A stretch of DNA of 6,554 nucleotides from a virus. Its lineage: Duplodnaviria; Heunggongvirae; Uroviricota; Caudoviricetes. Position numbers and translations under genes: made by a program. Below are positions 1-6,554 of this stretch, piece by piece. Every line of letters starts with the position of its first letter. The first letter of the stretch is position 1. The stretch lies in the IMG/VR virus record IMGVR_UViG_3300029033_000094, positions 1-6,554 of that record. One strand, written 5' to 3'. The notes beneath the pieces are model-generated. The model saw nothing but the letters and a program-made list of their open reading frames with translations. It did no database searches and was not told where the DNA came from.

Positions 1-2124
1 ACGAAGATGGATGCCTTTGGCTGTACCAGCCGGGGGCAGGCACACCGCGCCGGGCTGTGGCTGATTAAAACGGAGCTGCTGGAAACGCAGACGGTGGACT
101 TCAGCGTGGGTGCCGAAGGGCTTCGCCATGTGCCGGGCGATGTCATTGAAATCTGTGATGATGACTATGCCGGTATCAGCACCGGCGGGCGCGTGCTGGC
201 GGTAAACAGCCAGACCCGGACGCTGACGCTCGACCGTGAAATCACGCTGCCATCCTCCGGTACCACGCTGATAAGCCTGGTTGACGGAAGTGGCAATCCG
301 GTCAGCGTGGAGGTTCAGTCCGTCACCGACGGCGTGAAGGTGAAAGTGAGCCGTGTTCCTGACGGCGTTGCCGAATACAGCGTGTGGGGACTGAAGCTGC
401 CGACGCTGCGCCAGCGCCTGTTCCGCTGCGTGAGTATCCGTGAGAACGACGACGGCACGTATGCCATCACCGCCGTGCAGCATGTACCTGAAAAAGAGGC
501 CATCGTGGATAACGGGGCGCACTTTGACGGCGACCAGAGCGGCACGGTGAATGGTGTCACGCCGCCAGCGGTGCAGCACCTGACCGCCGAAGTCATCGCA
601 GACAGCGGGGAATATCAGGTGCTGGCGCGCTGGGACACGCCGAAGGTGGTGAAGGGCGTGAGCTTCCAGCTCCGTCTGACCGTAACAGCGGATGACGGCA
701 GTGAGCGGCTGGTCAGCACGGCCCGGACGACGGAAACCACATACCGCTTCACGCAGCTGGCGCTGGGGAACTACAGGCTGACAGTCCGGGCGGTAAATGC
801 GTGGGGGCAGCAGGGCGATCCGGCGTCGGTATCGTTCCGGATTGCCGCACCGGCAGCGCCGTCACAGATTGAGCTGACGCCGGGCTATTTTCAGATAACC
901 GCCACGCCGCATCTTGCGGTTTCTGACCCGACGGTACAGTTTGAGTTCTGGTTCTCGGAAAAGCGGATTACCGATATCAGGCAGGTTGAAACCACAGCCC
1001 GCTATCTTGGCACGGCGCTGTACTGGATAGCCGCCAGTATCAATATCAAACCGGGCCATGATTATTACTTTTATATCCGCAGTGTGAACACCGTTGGCAA
1101 ATCGGCATTCGTGGAGGCCGTCGGTCGGGCGAGCGATGATGCGGAAGGTTACCTGGATTTTTTCAAAGGCAAGATAACCGAATCCCATCTCGGCAAGGAG
1201 CTGCTGGAAAAAGTCGAGCTGACGGAGGATAACGCCAGCAGACTGGAGGAGTTTTCGAAAGAGTGGAAGGACGCCAACGATAAGTGGAATGCCATGTGGG
1301 CTGTCAAAATTGAGCAGACCAAAGACGGCAAACATTATGTCGCGGGTATTGGCCTCAGCATGGAGGACACGGAGGAAGGCAAACTGAGTCAGTTTCTGGT
1401 TGCCGCTAACCGTATCGCATTTATTGACCCGGCAAACGGGAATGAAACGCCGATGTTTGTGGCGCAGGGCAATCAGATATTCATGAACGACGTGTTCCTG
1501 AAGCGCCTGACGGCCCCCACCATTACCAGTGGTGGCAGTCCTCCGGTATTTTCCCTGACATCAGACGGAAAGCTGACCGCTAAAAATGCGGATATCAGTG
1601 GCAGTGTGAATGCGAACGCCGGGACGCTCAACAATGTCACGGTAAATGAAAACTGTACGATTAAGGGCATGCTGGAGGCGACTCAGGTCAGAGGTGACTT
1701 CGTTAAAGCTGTATCCAAATCATTCCCGAAACAGGCTGGTACGTGGGGTAATACGGAAACACCAAACGGGACGGTTACAGTCACCATCAGCGATGATCAT
1801 AACTTTGACCGTCAAATCATTATTCCGCCCATTATCTTTAACGGAATAGCGTATAGCGATCCGGGAAGTGGTAATAACCCGGGAGGTACAAGATACACGG
1901 GGTATGGTTTTGAAGTTCGCAAAAACGGTGTATTAATCGCATCCAGAGAAACTAAAGGGGCCATTCCCGGTAGCTACAGTGCGGTTATTGATATGCCTAG
2001 TGGCAGGGGAAGCGTCACTCTGGAGTTTAAGGTTTTCCATAAAGGCAATCAGCGGGCAGGTAATATCACCGACTGTACGGTGATTGTGACCAAAAAAGCC
2101 GCTTCCGGCATCAGTATTCGTTGA
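1..2124 (+). CDS. J: Tail tip host-specificity protein J, C-terminal ~705 codons; 5'-partial, gene continues upstream of the window
   Basis: Frame is open from nt 1 to TGA at 2122-2124; the ATG at nt 7 is an internal Met, not the start. The translation reads as the central and C-terminal part of lambda-type J, including beta-rich FN3-like repeat segments (e.g. ...[27 protein letters not shown]...). Gene order J-lom-stf-tfa matches lambda. Identity is by recognition, not search. Confidence 0.88.
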
Positions 2125-2144
2125 AATTGTTATAACCCATATAA

Positions 2145-2170
2145 GGGCACCAGAAATGGTGCCTTTTTTA
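2145..2170 (+). terminator. Candidate rho-independent terminator between J and lom
   Basis: Stem GGCACCA (2146-2152) pairs with TGGTGCC (2157-2163) around a GAAA tetraloop (2153-2156), followed directly by TTTTTT (2164-2169). It sits 21 nt after the J stop. Orientation fits + strand transcription only. Confidence 0.6.
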
Positions 2171-2182
2171 TTGCAGAAAAGC

Positions 2183-2188
2183 GAGAGG
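2183..2188 (+). promoter_or_regulatory. Shine-Dalgarno-like element for lom
   Basis: GAGAGG lies 5 nt upstream of the lom ATG at 2194. Confidence 0.5.
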
Positions 2189-2193
2189 TAATT

Positions 2194-2793
2194 ATGCGTA
2201 AACTTTATGCCGCCATTTTTTCCGCAGCCATTTGTCTGGCCGTATCCGGTGCGCCTGCATGGGCATCTGAACATCAGTCCACGCTGAGCGCGGGGTATCT
2301 TCATGCCTCGACGAACGTTCCCGGCAGCGATGATCTTAACGGGATTAACGTGAAATACCGTTATGAGTTTACGGATACGCTGGGGCTGGTGACGTCATTC
2401 AGCTATGCAGGAGACAAGAATCGCCAGCTGACCCATTACAGCGATACCCGCTGGCATGAAGATTCCGTTCGTAACCGCTGGTTCAGCGTGATGGTGGGGC
2501 CGTCTGTGCGCGTGAATGAATGGTTCAGCGCGTATGCGATGGCGGGTGTGGCTTACAGCCGTGTGTCGACTTTCTCCGGGGATTATCTCCGCGTAACTGA
2601 CAACAAGGGGAAAACGCACGATGTGCTGACCGGAAGTGATGACGGTCGCCACAGCAACATGTCTCTGGCGTGGGGGGCTGGCGTGCAGTTTAACCCGACC
2701 GAATCCGTGGCCATTGATGTCGCTTATGAAGGCTCCGGCAGTGGCGACTGGCGCACTGACGGTTTCATCGTGGGTGTCGGTTATAAGTTCTGA
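2194..2793 (+). CDS. lom: Lom-like outer membrane protein (Ail/Lom/OmpX/PagC family 8-strand beta-barrel), 199 aa
   Basis: ATG at 2194 with upstream SD. N-terminal signal peptide MRKLYAAIFSAAICLAVSGAPAWA with an AxA cleavage motif. The C-terminal half (...SAYAMAGVAYSR...VDVAYEGSGSGDWRTDGFIVGVGYKF) is near-identical in pattern to lambda Lom and ends in the C-terminal Phe typical of OM beta-barrels. Position between J and stf matches lambda. Confidence 0.85.
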   Translation: MRKLYAAIFSAAICLAVSGAPAWASEHQSTLSAGYLHASTNVPGSDDLNGINVKYRYEFTDTLGLVTSFSYAGDKNRQLTHYSDTRWHEDSVRNRWFSVMVGPSVRVNEWFSAYAMAGVAYSRVSTFSGDYLRVTDNKGKTHDVLTGSDDGRHSNMSLAWGAGVQFNPTESVAIDVAYEGSGSGDWRTDGFIVGVGYKF

Positions 2794-2819
2794 TTAGCCA
2801 GGTAACACAGTGTTATGAC

Positions 2820-2846
2820 AGCCCGCCGGTTCTGGCGGGCTTTTTT
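2820..2846 (+). terminator. Candidate rho-independent terminator downstream of lom
   Basis: GC-rich stem AGCCCGCC (2820-2827) pairs with GGCGGGCT (2834-2841) around loop GGTTCT, running into TTTTTT (2841-2846). It lies 27 nt after the lom stop and 12 nt before the stf ATG. Confidence 0.65.
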
Positions 2847-2848
2847 GT

Positions 2849-2855
2849 GGGGTGA
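2849..2855 (+). promoter_or_regulatory. Shine-Dalgarno-like element for stf
   Basis: GGGGTGA ends 2 nt before the ATG at 2858 (the GG core is about 5 nt upstream). Confidence 0.45.
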
Positions 2856-2857
2856 AT

Positions 2858-5800
2858 ATGGCAGTAAAGATTTCAGGTGTACTGAAAGACGGTGCAGGTA
2901 AACCGGTACAGAACTGTACAATCCAGCTGAAAGCAAAACGTAACAGCACCACGGTGGTGGCGAACACGGTGGCCTCAGAAAATCCGGATGAAGCCGGGCG
3001 TTACAGCATGGACGTTGAGTACGGTCAGTACAGCGTTATTCTGTTGGTGGAAGGATTCCCGCCGTCACATGCCGGGACCATCACCGTGTATGAAGATTCC
3101 CGACCCGGTACGCTGAATGATTTTCTCGGTGCCATGACGGAGGATGATGCCCGTCCGGAGGCTCTGCGCCGTTTTGAACTGATGGTGGAAGAGGTGGCGC
3201 GTAACGCGTCCGCAGTGGCACAGAACACGGCAGCCGCGAAGAAGTCAGCCAGTGATGCCAGCACATCTGCCAGTGAGGCGGCAACTCATACAACCGATGC
3301 TGCAGGCTCAGCTCGTGCCGCCAGCACGTCAGCCGGACAGGCTGCATCATCTGCTCAGTCAGCATCTTCCAGCGCAGGAACGGCATCAACAAAGGCCAGT
3401 GAAGCATCGAAAAGTGCTGCTGCTGCAGAGTCCTCAAAAAGCGCGGCAGCTACCAGTGCCGCTGCGGCGAAAACGTCAGAAACGAATGCGGCAGCGTCAC
3501 AACAATCAGCAGCCACTTCTGCATCCGCCGCGACCACGAAGGCGTCAGAAGCTGCCACCTCAGCCCGGGATGCGGCGGCCTCAAAAGAGGCGGCAAAATC
3601 ATCAGAAACGAGCGCAGCCTCGAGCGCCAGTAGTGCAGCCTCCTCGGCAACAGCGGCAGGAAATTCCGCGAAGGCGGCAAAAACGTCCGAGACGAACGCT
3701 AAGTCTTCTGAGACGGCAGCAGCACAGAGTGCCTCCGCAGCAGCAGACTCAAAAACAGCGGCTGCCTCATCTGCCAGCGCCGCGTCAACAAATGCCGGGC
3801 AGGCCTCAGCCAGTGCCACCGCTGCCGGAAAGTCGGCAGAAAGCGCCGCATCATCCGCTTCAACAGCCACAACGAAGGCTGGCGAAGCCACTGAACAGGC
3901 CACGGCAGCAGCGAGGTCAGCTTCCGCAGCGAAGACATCCGAAACGAACGCGAAAGCGTCGGAAACCAGCGCAGAATCCTCAAAAACGGCTGCCGCATCG
4001 TCAGCCAGTTCGGCGGCGTCATCGGCATCATCTGCGTCTGCTTCAAAAGATGAGGCGACCAGACAGGCGTCAGCAGCGAAGGGCAGCGCCACGACGGCAT
4101 CCACGAAGGCGACAGAGGCAGCTGGCAGTGCGACGGCGGCAGCACAGAGCAAAAGTACAGCAGAATCCGCGGCAACGCGCGCTGAGACAGCAGCAAAACG
4201 GGCAGAGGATATTGCATCCGCCGTGGCGCTTGAGGATGCGAGCACGACGAAAAAGGGGATAGTACAGCTCAGCAGTGCGATCGACAGCACTTCCGAGTCA
4301 CTGGCAGCAACGCCAAAAGCAGTTAAGGCCGCGTATGACCTGGCTAACGGGAAATACACCGCACAGGATGCAACGACAGCACAGAAAGGGATAGTTCAGC
4401 TCAGCAGCGCGACCAACAGCACGTCTGAAACGCTGGCGGCAACGCCAAAGGCAGTAAAAGCAGCCAATGACAATGCTGAGAAACGTCTGCAGAAAGATCA
4501 GAACGGTGCGGATATCCCTGGCAAAGACACCTTTACGAAAAATATTGGTGCCTGCCGCGCCTTCGGTGGGTCAGTAAGCACAACAACAGGAGACTGGACG
4601 ACTGCACAGTTTATCGAGTGGCTGGATTCTCAGGGAGCATTTAACCATCCATACTGGATGTGCAAGGGTTCCTGGTCTTATGGCAATAATAAAATCATTA
4701 CTGATACTGGCTGCGGTAATATTCATCTCGCCGGAGCTGTCATTGAAGTAATGGGGATAAAGTCAGCGATGACGATCCGCATTACCACACCGACCACCTC
4801 CACTGGTGGTGGAACAACTAACGCCCAGTTTACCTATATTAATCACGGAACAGATTATTCACCTGGCTGGCGAAGGGACTATAACTCCAGAAATAAGCCA
4901 ACGGCATCAGAGATCGGGGCGTTACCGTCAGGTGGAACAGCAGTATCATCAGTTAATCTGGCTTCAAAAGGTCGGGTAATCGCGCTGACAGACAATACGC
5001 AGGGGGCAACAGGTCTTGAGTTATACGAGGTGTATAACAACGGATATCCAACAGCGTATGGAAATATCATTCACCTGAAAGGGATGACAGCCGTTGGCGA
5101 AGGTGAGTTACTCATCGGCTGGAGTGGTACAAGCGGTGCTCATGCTCCGGCATTTATTCGTTCACGACGGGATACGACCGATGCAAACTGGTCGCCGTGG
5201 GCGCAGCTTTACACCTCAGCTCATCCTCCTGCAGAGTTTTATCCAGTCGGTGCACCAATCCCGTGGCCATCAGATACCGTTCCGTCTGGCTATGCCCTGA
5301 TGCAGGGGCAGACTTTTGACAAATCTGCTTACCCGAAACTTGCAGCCGCTTATCCGTCAGNNNNNNNNNNNNNNGGCTGGACGATTAAGGGCAAACCTGC
5401 CAGTGGTCGAGCCGTATTATCTCAGGAACAGGACGGCATTAAATCGCACACCCACAGCGCCAGCGCATCCAGTACGGATTTGGGGACGAAAACCACATCG
5501 TCGTTTGATTACGGCACTAAATCCACGAATAACACCGGGGCACATACACACAGTGTGAGCGGCTCTACAAACTCGGCTGGAGCACACACACACTCACTAG
5601 CCAACGTGAACACGGCTAGTGCTAACTCCGGTGCTGGTAGTGCATCAACAAGATTGTCTGTTGTGCATAATCAAAACTATGCAACATCATCTGCTGGCGC
5701 ACATACCCACTCACTGTCCGGCACTGCTGCAAGCGCAGGTGCACACGCACATACTGTCGGTATTGGTGCTCATACGCACTCGGTTGCGATTGGCTCACAT

Positions 5801-5887
5801 GGACACACCATCACCGTTAACGCTGCTGGTAACGCGGAAAACACCGTCAAAAACATCGCATTTAACTACATTGTGAGGCTTGCATAA
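2858..5887 (+). CDS. stf: Side tail fibre protein Stf, 1009 aa; contains a 14-nt N-run at 5361-5374, so continuity is unverified there
   Basis: ATG at 2858 gives N-terminus [26 protein letters not shown]..., which matches the lambda Stf N-terminus as I recall it; an in-frame GTG at 2852 is a less likely alternative start. One frame stays open to TAA at 5885-5887. Contents: Ala/Ser/Thr-rich shaft, two tail-fibre repeats (GIVQLSS...[11 protein letters not shown]), and a His-x-His-rich C-terminal tip ending ...[11 protein letters not shown]. The stop overlaps the tfa start. Confidence 0.85.
3205..4250 (+). repeat. Ala/Ser/Thr-rich low-complexity repeat region encoding the Stf shaft
   Basis: About 350 codons dominated by GCN, TCN, AGC and ACN codons. 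The motif AAKTSETNA recurs three times (about nt 3464, 3674, 3926; spacings 210 and 252 nt), and [10 protein letters not shown]-type stretches recur. Copies differ at synonymous positions, so the repeats are old rather than recent slippage. Confidence 0.8.
4252..4470 (+). repeat. Tandem pair of phage tail-fibre repeats within stf
   Basis: [30 protein letters not shown] (from about 4252) and [30 protein letters not shown] (from about 4384) are in frame, 129 nt (43 codons) apart. The copies are diverged at both nucleotide and amino-acid level. Confidence 0.8.
5361..5374. other. Run of 14 ambiguous bases (N) inside stf: sequencing gap or masked bases
   Basis: Literal n characters in the sequence. 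The stf frame is sensible on both sides (...AAYPS / GWTIKGKP...) and in phase only if the true segment length is 2 mod 3, as 14 is. Confidence 0.95.
5443..5816 (+). other. His-x-His motif-rich C-terminal tip domain of Stf (seven HxH motifs)
   Basis: Seven motifs in order: SHTHS, AHTHS, AHTHS, AHTHS, AHAHT, AHTHS, SHGHT, separated by Gly/Ser/Thr/Ala-rich linkers. This is the pattern of the T4 gp37-type fibre tip. Confidence 0.7.
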
Positions 5888-6471
5888 TGGCATTCAGAAT
5901 GAGTGAACAACCACGGACCATAAAAATTTATAATCTGCTGGCCGGAACTAATGAATTTATTGGTGAAGGTGATGCATATATTCCGCCTCATACAGGTCTG
6001 CCAGCAAACAGTACCGATATTGCACCGCCAGATATTCCGGCAGGCTTCGTGGCTGTTTTCAACAGTGATGAGGCATCGTGGCATCTCGTTGAAGACCATC
6101 GGGGTAAAACGGTTTATGACGTAGCGTCAGGGGACGCGTTATTTATTTCTGAACTCGGTCCGTTACCGGAAAATGTTACCTGGTTATCGCCGGAAGGGGA
6201 GTTTCAGAAGTGGAACGGCACAGCCTGGGTGAAAGATGCAGAAGCAGAAAAACTGTTCCGGATCCGAGAGGCGGAAGAAACAAAAAACAGCCTGATGCAG
6301 GTAGCCAGTGAGCATATTGCGCCACTTCAGGATGCTGTGGATCTGGAAATCGCAACGGAGGAAGAAACCTCATTGCTGGAAGCCTGGAAAAAGTATCGGG
6401 TGTTGCTGAACCGTGTTGATACATCAACTGCACCTGATATTGAGTGGCCTACGAACCCTGTCAGGGAGTAA
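5887..6471 (+). CDS. tfa: Tail fibre assembly protein Tfa, 194 aa
   Basis: ATG at 5887-5889 overlaps the stf TAA (5885-5887) as TAATG. The product [51 protein letters not shown]... is the same length as lambda Tfa (orf-194) and, from memory, near-identical to it. Stop TAA at 6469-6471. Confidence 0.9.
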
Positions 6472-6482
6472 TCATTGGGATT

Positions 6483-6554
6483 ATGCCGCAGCACGTCTTA
6501 AGCAAGAACGTGCTGCGGTTGGATGCTATTTTTTCCCTGAAGCGGAAAACATTA
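6483..6554 (+). CDS. Possible start of a downstream ORF running off the window (MPQHVLSKNVLRLDAIFSLKRKTL...); speculative
   Basis: ATG at 6483 opens a frame with no stop before the window end (24 codons). The only SD-like sequence (GGGA, 6477-6480) is just 2 nt from the ATG, and the frame overlaps the inverted repeat. No recognisable product. Confidence 0.15.
   Translation, partial: MPQHVLSKNVLRLDAIFSLKRKTL
6486..6518. repeat. Perfect 10-bp inverted repeat (hairpin or protein-binding palindrome) just downstream of tfa
   Basis: CCGCAGCACG (6486-6495) and CGTGCTGCGG (6509-6518) are exact reverse complements around a 13-nt loop TCTTAAGCAAGAA, which itself contains the palindrome CTTAAG. A T6 run follows at 6529-6534, 10 nt past the stem. 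Confidence 0.6.

Follow-up and report, generated by a model that had tools for sequence, protein, structure and literature searches.

A lambda-like side tail fibre whose middle cassette matches the knob modules of Mu, P2, and P1 fibres

Gene order and architecture of the stf locus

The window, by which we mean the whole 6,554-nucleotide stretch analysed here (positions 1 to 6,554 of the viral record IMGVR_UViG_3300029033_000094), contains four genes in the order J-lom-stf-tfa, and Pfam matches were obtained for all four. These genes and the constituent parts of the side tail fibre are as follows.

7..2124, + strand: tail tip protein J, C-terminal 705 aa (Pfam Ig_J, Ig_J_second, Phage_Tail_Tip, and Ig_GpJ_C)
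2194..2793, + strand: lom, Ail/Lom outer-membrane beta-barrel (PF06316, E 7.5e-120)
2858..5887, + strand: stf, side tail fibre gene (1009 aa, open reading frame intact)
2858..3217, + strand: N-terminal tail-attachment domain, aa 1-120 (PF08400 phage_tail_N; lambda Stf 1-94 structures)
3218..4222, + strand: Ala/Ser/Thr-rich shaft, aa 121-455 (Ala+Ser+Thr fraction 0.65-0.82)
4241..4495, + strand: two Phage_fiber_2 repeats, aa 462-502 and 506-546 (PF03406, E 5e-43, two stretches)
4496..4939, + strand: knob module 1, aa 547-694, the Cys-containing module of the preliminary description (homologous to Mu S', P2 gpH, and P1 Sv')
4940..5236, + strand: knob module 2, aa 695-793 (ends in an FxRSxRD...W..W..YT motif)
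5237..5884, + strand: T4 gp37-type collar and iron-binding needle, aa 794-1009 (2XGF, PF07484 Collar, PF03335; iron binding predicted)
5361..5374, no strand: run of 14 N in the collar domain, masking or assembly gap (reads as five X codons)
5597..5698, + strand: predicted distal "head" of the needle, aa ~914-947 (variable; presumed receptor-contacting)
5887..6471, + strand: tfa, tail fibre assembly chaperone (PF02413 [Caudo_TAP], E 3.2e-45)

The stf reading frame opens with an ATG at 2858 and closes with a stop ending at 5887, where it is overlapped by the start of tfa (TAATG at the junction). An upstream in-frame GTG at 2852 would extend Stf by the residues MN. The long alternative-frame reading frames at 3252-4262(+) and 3355-4359(-) were rejected as artefacts arising from the low-complexity shaft. 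Tfa shares 95% identity with K-12 TfaR, and the last 250 aa of J are 58% identical to lambda J, with identity dropping in the last ~130 residues, the receptor-binding domain, which diverges from that of lambda J.

Both ends of Stf are readily assigned. At the N-terminus, PF08400 extends over aa 1-134 (E 2.4e-71; 238 bits against a cut-off of 26.6), and a PDB sequence search matches this region to residues 1-94 of lambda Stf in the tail structures 9e7m and 9mgh (E 8.7e-51). At the C-terminus, the T4 gp37 tip (2XGF) matches aa 794-1009 with E values of about 1.3e-80 to 1.5e-80, and the PF07484 Collar model scores 33-36 bits against a cut-off of 24. The needle of T4 gp37 carries seven iron-coordinating HxH motifs along its length (2XGF), and Stf has the same number (aa 864, 896, 910, 949, 963, 972, and 981), all predicted metal sites; the two proteins also have in common a conserved C-terminal sequence of 11 residues, whereas the head of T4 gp37 is unlike that of Stf, and T4 fibre assembly employs gp38 and gp57, not a lambda-type Tfa. 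By analogy with T4 gp37, we infer that the head, situated between the third and fourth HxH motifs, would be the receptor-contacting tip. At the site of the 14-N run, which obscures seven collar residues, homologs have 20 nucleotides that encode G-V/A-I/L-P-D-M-R.

The preliminary description, which was made from the sequence alone, had recognized an stf gene with lambda-like ends that is longer than its lambda counterpart and mosaic in structure, and all of this holds up. The peptides that it quoted occur exactly in the translation, identity to lambda (Ur-lambda) Stf is 79% over aa 1-352 and 69% over aa 795-1009, and the present protein exceeds the 774 aa of lambda Stf by 235 aa. Common to the two are the N-terminal anchor, the Ala/Ser shaft, the first Phage_fiber_2 repeat, and the gp37-like collar and needle; lambda stf likewise follows J and lom and is itself followed by tfa. 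In its collinear Ala/Ser-rich shaft, its gp37-like C-terminus, and its location downstream of J and lom and ahead of the Tfa chaperone gene, Stf is thus of the lambda type. The mosaicism resides in a middle cassette that is missing from lambda Stf and in 103 extra residues of shaft (aa 306-408, nt 3773-4081), which a three-way alignment finds in K-12 StfR but without counterpart in lambda Stf. Tandem Repeats Finder detected no DNA tandem repeats in stf, and the longer shaft is therefore not a recent tandem duplication. Where lambda has an unrelated middle of 133 aa (aa 397-529), Stf has a second Phage_fiber_2 repeat and two knobs; lambda Stf and K-12 StfR each possess only one such repeat, and the second repeat here falls opposite a gap of 44 aa in the StfR sequence when the two proteins are aligned pairwise.

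Two knob modules in the middle cassette

The span at nt 4500-5360 had been described as a single module of roughly 240 codons belonging to no recognized family. It actually comprises 287 codons and encompasses two separate domains together with the start of a third, and its Cys-containing domain has known relatives. Residues 539-694 of Stf match residues 178-333 of PDB entry 8JU3 at ~80% identity (E 2.2e-69; for Stf overall, the PDB sequence search returns 8ju3 at E 1.3e-85). This entry represents the G(-) fibre of Mu, gp52 (PMC11821841), from a structural study cited in PMC11915804 as Mori et al. 2024. Knob module 1 is 80% identical to P2 gpH and 72% identical to P1 Sv', and it contains the core residues of the family as defined by the columns of a 56-sequence alignment: W600, C602, T617-G-C619-G, I622, L624, and W671-R-R-D. 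The several cysteines remarked upon earlier number three (aa 566, 602, and 619), the only other cysteine in Stf being at aa 20.

The relationship to Mu S' continues through knob module 2 to aa 792, such that residues 17-250 of the variable part of Mu S' are collinear with aa 538-792 (49% identity overall); residues 103-564 of P2 H correspond in alignment to aa 309-791, and P1 Sv' has the two modules in the opposite order. Knob module 2 is 64% identical to residues 47-153 of P1 Sv', 77% to Goslar, 62% to Gifsy-1 Stf, and 44% to Vibrio phages; searched alone, it has no PDB sequence match, and its structural model has a pLDDT of only 58-73. In Foldseek, a predicted model aligns to 8ju3 over 258 of 261 residues and has the same fold as the knob domains of Mu S', P2 gpH, and P1 S' (8JU3).

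Homologs of the module are widespread. By tblastn, they are present in P1, P7, P2, Mu, SfMu, SSU5, Gifsy-1, Goslar, and Vibrio and Aeromonas phages; 597 were found in the protein database, and PHROG tail-fibre families match the module with E values down to 1e-78. An exact 50-mer taken from knob module 1 had no match among the genome contigs searched. Pfam searches of the isolated segments aa 540-694 and aa 695-794 returned nothing at E<=1, and on a longer piece, Gp34_trimer (PF21446) reached 19 bits against a cut-off of 27, below the gathering threshold. Among the homologs, the module is joined to either lambda-type (PF08400) or P2-type (PF12571) N-termini and precedes tips as varied as PF07484, PF12604, and Mu/P1-type ends; in a Photorhabdus fibre, it occurs twice in tandem. 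Such varied surroundings would fit a reusable structural element. Judging from these matches, the "unassigned" module is a knob domain that is already known and whose structure has been solved (PDB 8JU3).

The preliminary description also noted that this segment is less GC-rich than the shaft. The drop is real, with a GC content of 61.0% in the shaft (nt 3218-4222) and 48.5% at nt 4493-4939 (50.4% across nt 4500-5360), but the compositional break that it seemed to mark is not. GC at the third codon position is level (0.49 in the shaft versus 0.47 in the module), while that at the second position declines from 0.80 to 0.56, a consequence of the ~78% Ala/Ser/Thr content of the shaft; the GC contents expected from amino-acid content and gene-wide codon usage are 60.5% for the shaft and 50.3% for the module. 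The lower GC content of the module is an amino-acid composition effect, with no foreign-DNA break, and the flat third position and the composition-based prediction rule it out as a sign of horizontal origin. Where a raw GC drop adjoins a low-complexity shaft rich in Ala and Ser, codon position 3 should be checked before foreign DNA is invoked.

Relatives of the complete fibre

Several fibres share the full-length architecture. The Stf of E. coli 23CRST001 (WP_095586120.1) is collinear throughout, differing by 23 substitutions, all before aa 372, and by the masked stretch; from aa 372 to the end, the two proteins are identical apart from the masked residues. PhiR26_1 Stf (PV340555) is collinear and 92% identical overall, rising to 98% in the two knob modules, but its needle head (aa ~899-946) is different and 14 aa longer. 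The head also differs from that of lambda, which is longer. The Stf proteins of mEp460_ev081 and PhiR42_1 have the same full-length collinear architecture. None of the titles and abstracts of the literature screened names a receptor for StfR or for the PhiR and mEp460 phages.

A nucleotide-level mosaic map of stf brings out its relationship to stfR of the K-12 Rac prophage, whose product is 1120 aa. Over aa 1-494, long shaft included, nucleotide identity is ~94%; the collar and needle have the same protein sequence in both, beginning at the masked run (aa ~840) and continuing through the C-terminus, and there is 100% nucleotide identity over nt 5500-5760, a stretch that takes in the head. Between these regions, StfR has an unrelated cassette of ~355 aa instead of the Mu/P2-type knobs. 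Lambda Stf, K-12 StfR, and the present Stf therefore each carry a different cassette in the middle position, which bears out the earlier suggestion of a site of exchange; the added suggestion that receptor modules are swapped there is not supported, as the knob module is internal and, by homology to gp37, the receptor tip would be the head, where Stf also departs from its closest phage relatives.

The fibres of Mu, P2, and P1 belong to contractile-tailed phages, and their N-termini and distal tips are different from those of Stf. Mu and P1 carry the module within an invertible segment adjoining an invertase, whereas the present window, which reaches only 83 nt beyond tfa, has a single stf-tfa pair on one strand, no invertase, and no sign of a Mu G/P1 C-type switch with a Gin/Cin invertase, an arrangement in which inverted crossover sites bracket the variable part of the fibre beside a serine invertase and a second fibre/chaperone gene pair. 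At the collinear locus of E. coli 23CRST001, no invertase is present, and a methyltransferase, a tfa fragment, and a hydrolase lie downstream.

Origin and probable function of the fibre

We consider it very probable that this gene is the stf of a lambda-like E. coli prophage, built by recombination from modules that circulate among the fibres of enterobacterial phages. By homology, residues 1 to ~120 are the domain with which lambda Stf is anchored to the tail tip, followed by an Ala/Ser/Thr shaft (aa 121-455) of the K-12 Rac StfR length variant, the two Phage_fiber_2 repeats (aa 462-546), two knobs (aa 547-694 and 695-793) that are collinear with the two domains preceding the distal tip of Mu S' (8JU3), and a collar and needle of the T4 gp37 type (aa 794-1009), with the adjacent tfa encoding the assembly chaperone. 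The protein would form a trimer that folds from its C-terminus with the help of Tfa, and several such fibres would surround the J tail tip. The needle head (aa ~914-947) would mediate a fast, reversible first adsorption, probably to LPS and/or an outer-membrane porin (OmpC, for example), in the manner of lambda Stf and T4 gp37. Given where they lie and how they are distributed, the knobs would act mainly as rigid spacer and trimerization elements that lengthen the distal fibre and not as the primary receptor site. A knob could alternatively bind a surface glycan.

OmpC serves as a receptor for lambda Stf, and a chimeric lambda-P2 Stf retains function (bioRxiv 10.1101/2022.09.30.509847). Recombination across stf-tfa takes place between lambda and both Rac and Qin, and mosaicism of phage fibres was described in 1989-1994 (PMC3945230). 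According to references listed in PMC3945230, the P2, Mu, and P1 homologs of the module have been known since the early 1990s.

Three other readings warrant consideration. It is unlikely that this is a relic gene that, like Rac stfR in K-12, belongs to a defective prophage and makes no functional fibre. The tip and tfa scarcely differ from their counterparts in the defective K-12 Rac prophage, only 6.5 kb of prophage is visible, and the N run breaks the sequence; against this, the reading frames of J (in its C-terminal part), lom, stf, and tfa are uninterrupted and of full length, the N run is in frame at a site where homologs are intact, and collinear Stf proteins with 92% identity come from phages that form plaques and were isolated on K-12 and E. 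coli C.

Somewhat less probable is a bivalent fibre, in which the module at aa ~547-694, with or without aa 695-793, is an additional receptor or glycan site that reads LPS or O-antigen while the needle reads a porin. Mu G(-) and P1 C(-) fibres, both of which bear the module, recognize LPS. The same is true of P2 fibres (bioRxiv 10.1101/2022.09.30.509847), and the middle cassette is among the positions that differ between lambda Stf, StfR, and the present protein. In Mu S', P1 Sv', and P2 H, however, a further distal tip lies beyond the module and varies with specificity, and the module itself retains 70-84% identity among fibres whose tips and hosts differ; Photorhabdus has it as a tandem duplicate, and in P1 the module order is shuffled. 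A module that is conserved, duplicated, and shuffled, with a varying tip beyond it, therefore has the properties of a shaft element and not those of a specificity determinant. We regard as more doubtful still the specific form of this proposal, in which the knob pair at aa 547-793 provides a second LPS or glycan site, allowing one fibre to read two receptors, and the conserved pair C602 and C619, with an adjacent His/Cys at 623, make up a structural disulfide or metal site needed there.

The reading drawn from the preliminary description, that the module constitutes a new and undescribed family of domains obtained recently from a donor of lower GC content, could draw on the lack of a Pfam model above threshold for aa 547-793 and on the raw GC difference, but it is refuted by the 8JU3 match, the P2, Mu, and P1 homologs, the PHROG matches, the 597 database homologs, and the composition analysis, and we give it virtually no credence. 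Both of the outcomes that this description had itself named beforehand as counting against it were found: a full-length collinear annotated Stf (WP_095586120.1) and a match to a known tail fibre domain.

Stf and its modules are thus already known, and the gene encodes an intact, ordinary side tail fibre. Although of little importance beyond annotation, it offers a clean example of the three exchangeable positions in lambdoid Stf proteins, namely, shaft length, middle cassette, and needle head, and its natural junctions at aa ~499, after the first Phage_fiber_2 repeat, and at aa ~794, before the collar, might suit the construction of fibre chimeras for host-range engineering.

Gene order and domain architecture

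ORF mapping and Pfam assign four genes to the window, all on the + strand and in lambda order.

Genes in the window (ORF map and Pfam)
7-2124 (+): J, tail tip protein, C-terminal 705 aa
2194-2793 (+): lom
2858-5887 (+): stf, side tail fibre gene, ATG to end of stop, a 1009-aa ORF that contains the peptides quoted in the preliminary description
5887-6471 (+): tfa, whose start shares TAATG with the stf stop

Two other long ORFs of 334-336 aa, 3252-4262 (+) and 3355-4359 (-), cross the Ala/Ser shaft of stf in other frames and are most likely artefacts of low-complexity, stop-poor sequence, not genes. The lom-stf interval (window ~2820-2848) holds a candidate intrinsic terminator, an apparent hairpin rich in GC with a T-run after it (cagcccgccggttctggcgggcttttttg). 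A run of 14 Ns at 5361-5374 interrupts the collar domain of stf, where every homolog has 20 nt coding G-(V/A)-(I/L)-P-D-M-R, so the masked run falls 6 nt short of the real sequence. The reading frame is kept across it (1009 aa, versus 1011 aa in Escherichia coli 23CRST001).

Domains of Stf
aa 1-134: N-terminal domain PF08400 (Pfam, E 2.4e-71); aa 1-94 match the lambda Stf fragment of tail structures 9e7m/9mgh (PDB sequence search, E 8.7e-51)
aa 121-455: Ala/Ser/Thr shaft (composition and alignment)
aa 462-502 and 506-546: two Phage_fiber_2 repeats (Pfam)
aa 539-694: knob module 1, ~80% identical to residues 178-333 of 8ju3 (E 2.2e-69)
aa 695-793: knob module 2 (tblastn and BLASTP homologs, Foldseek alignment)
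aa 794-1009: T4 gp37 collar and needle (2xgf, E 1.3e-80), with Pfam Collar and seven HxH motifs

A known mosaic without a compositional break

Stf is a mosaic with lambda-like ends, as proposed, and is longer than its Ur-lambda counterpart (774 aa), to which it is 79% identical over aa 1-352 and 69% over aa 795-1009. The lambda protein lacks 103 shaft residues (aa 306-408) and has an unrelated 133-aa segment in place of aa ~500-794. K-12 Rac StfR (1120 aa) shares ~94% nucleotide identity over aa 1-494, long shaft included, and, starting at the masked run (aa ~840), an identical collar and needle protein as far as the C-terminus, with 100% nucleotide identity over nt 5500-5760, head included, whereas its middle is a different segment of ~355 aa. 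The PhiR26_1 fibre is collinear and 92% identical except in the needle head (aa ~899-946), and the E. coli 23CRST001 protein WP_095586120.1, also collinear, differs by 23 substitutions, all before aa 372. Judged by alignment, this exact combination of modules already exists in 23CRST001. The architecture is common in E. coli: at least 80% of the whole window is present in 1320 complete E. coli records, and at least 80% of nt 4400-5887 in 663 genomes. Stf is an already known kind of fibre, of which near-identical annotated copies exist.

The preliminary description had read nt 4500-5360 as a ~240-codon module of lower GC, but this span comprises 287 codons and more than one domain. The drop itself is real (61.0% in the shaft, nt 3218-4222; 48.5% at nt 4493-4939; 50.4% over nt 4500-5360); a lower-GC source for it is not upheld. 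Ala, Ser, and Thr make up 65-82% of shaft residues, and GC differs at codon position 2 (0.80 in the shaft, 0.56 in the module) and is nearly equal at position 3 (0.49 and 0.47). The gene-wide synonymous codon mix predicts 60.5% for the shaft and 50.3% for the module, so that ~10 of the 12.5 points are owed to amino acid content. No compositional break underlies the GC drop.

Fold and spread of the knob modules

We modelled aa 540-800 with AlphaFold2 from an alignment of 55 homologs; pLDDT was 82-95 in module 1, 58-73 in module 2, and below 50 in the linker between them. Foldseek returned a single significant PDB match, 8ju3 (E 3.7e-21), aligned over 258 of the 261 modelled residues. This entry is Mu gp52, the S' fibre of the G(-) orientation (PMC11821841), and the reference list of PMC11915804 gives Mori et al. 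2024, Virology, as its primary reference. The fold of the segment, earlier suggested to be an undescribed family, is therefore known, and its PDB representation is essentially the Mu fibre only. Both results that the preliminary description named as refuting it were obtained: alignment to an annotated Stf along the full length, and assignment of the module to a known tail fibre domain. Module 2 alone has no Pfam match and no PDB sequence match; its identity is 64% with P1 Sv' residues 47-153, 77% with a Goslar fibre, and 62% with Gifsy-1 Stf, and the BLASTP alignment of Mu S' with Stf reaches aa 792.

Cysteines occur at aa 20, 566, 602, and 619, the last three in the segment noted for them. 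Among 56 aligned sequences, C602 is kept in 51 and C619 in 54, and aa 623 alternates between His (29) and Cys (18); this conservation at the three positions (nt ~4661-4726) suggests a putative structural disulfide or metal site in the knob.

A tblastn query spanning both modules (aa 540-794) has matches in 149 phage records: both modules are matched in P1 Sv' (72%), P7 (71%), and SSU5 (66%; whole-query figures), and module 1 only is matched in P2 (80%), Yersinia P2-like phages (84%), Mu (71%), and SfMu (74%); Vibrio and Aeromonas phage fibres are more distant matches. Among 597 homologs in the protein database, the module is joined to lambda-type (PF08400) or P2-type (PF12571) N-termini and to varying tips: Collar (PF07484), gp37_C (PF12604), or Mu/P1-type ends such as ...QYCINGTWYNAGSI. 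The Cys-containing knob is doubled in tandem in a Photorhabdus tasmaniensis fibre protein, and module order in P1 Sv' (2362-3919 of the P1 locus sequence) is reversed relative to the window. These properties speak against the suggestion that the segment is a candidate receptor module; we infer that it is a reusable structural fibre element, not a specificity determinant.

Tail tip and predicted fibre function

The receptor-binding end of J (window ~1668-2121) forms a swapped cassette of its own. Similarity to lambda J is only weak over the final ~130 aa, and GC declines along J from ~0.63 to ~0.46. Despite the common stf, nt 1668-2085 is unmatched in the 23CRST001 prophage; PhiR26_1 and E. coli A8 both match it. 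LamB is probably not the target of the central tail tip. The regions past tfa differ between genomes: pinR, an invertase gene, follows in K-12 Rac, and the prophages of 23CRST001 and A8 carry genes for a SAM methyltransferase and an alpha/beta hydrolase together with a tfa fragment, with ompT adjoining.

By homology, Stf would be a trimeric side fibre whose N-terminal domain attaches it to the tail tip region. Reach and rigidity would come from the shaft and the two knobs, the knobs in a presumably purely structural role, and the gp37-type needle, held stable by metal ions on its HxH motifs, would turn its small head (aa ~914-947) towards the cell surface. A search of titles and abstracts found no identification of the receptor of this StfR-type head. 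Tfa, 95% identical to K-12 TfaR, would chaperone folding of the C-terminus. Lambda Stf uses OmpC for reversible adsorption, and a chimera of the lambda and P2 fibres works as Stf (bioRxiv 10.1101/2022.09.30.509847); lambda and the prophages Rac and Qin recombine across stf-tfa, and it is described as "well documented" that fibre modules spread between unrelated phages (PMC3945230, with Montag 1989, Haggard-Ljungquist 1992, and Sandmeier 1992/1994 as cited there). This literature supports the proposed mechanism.
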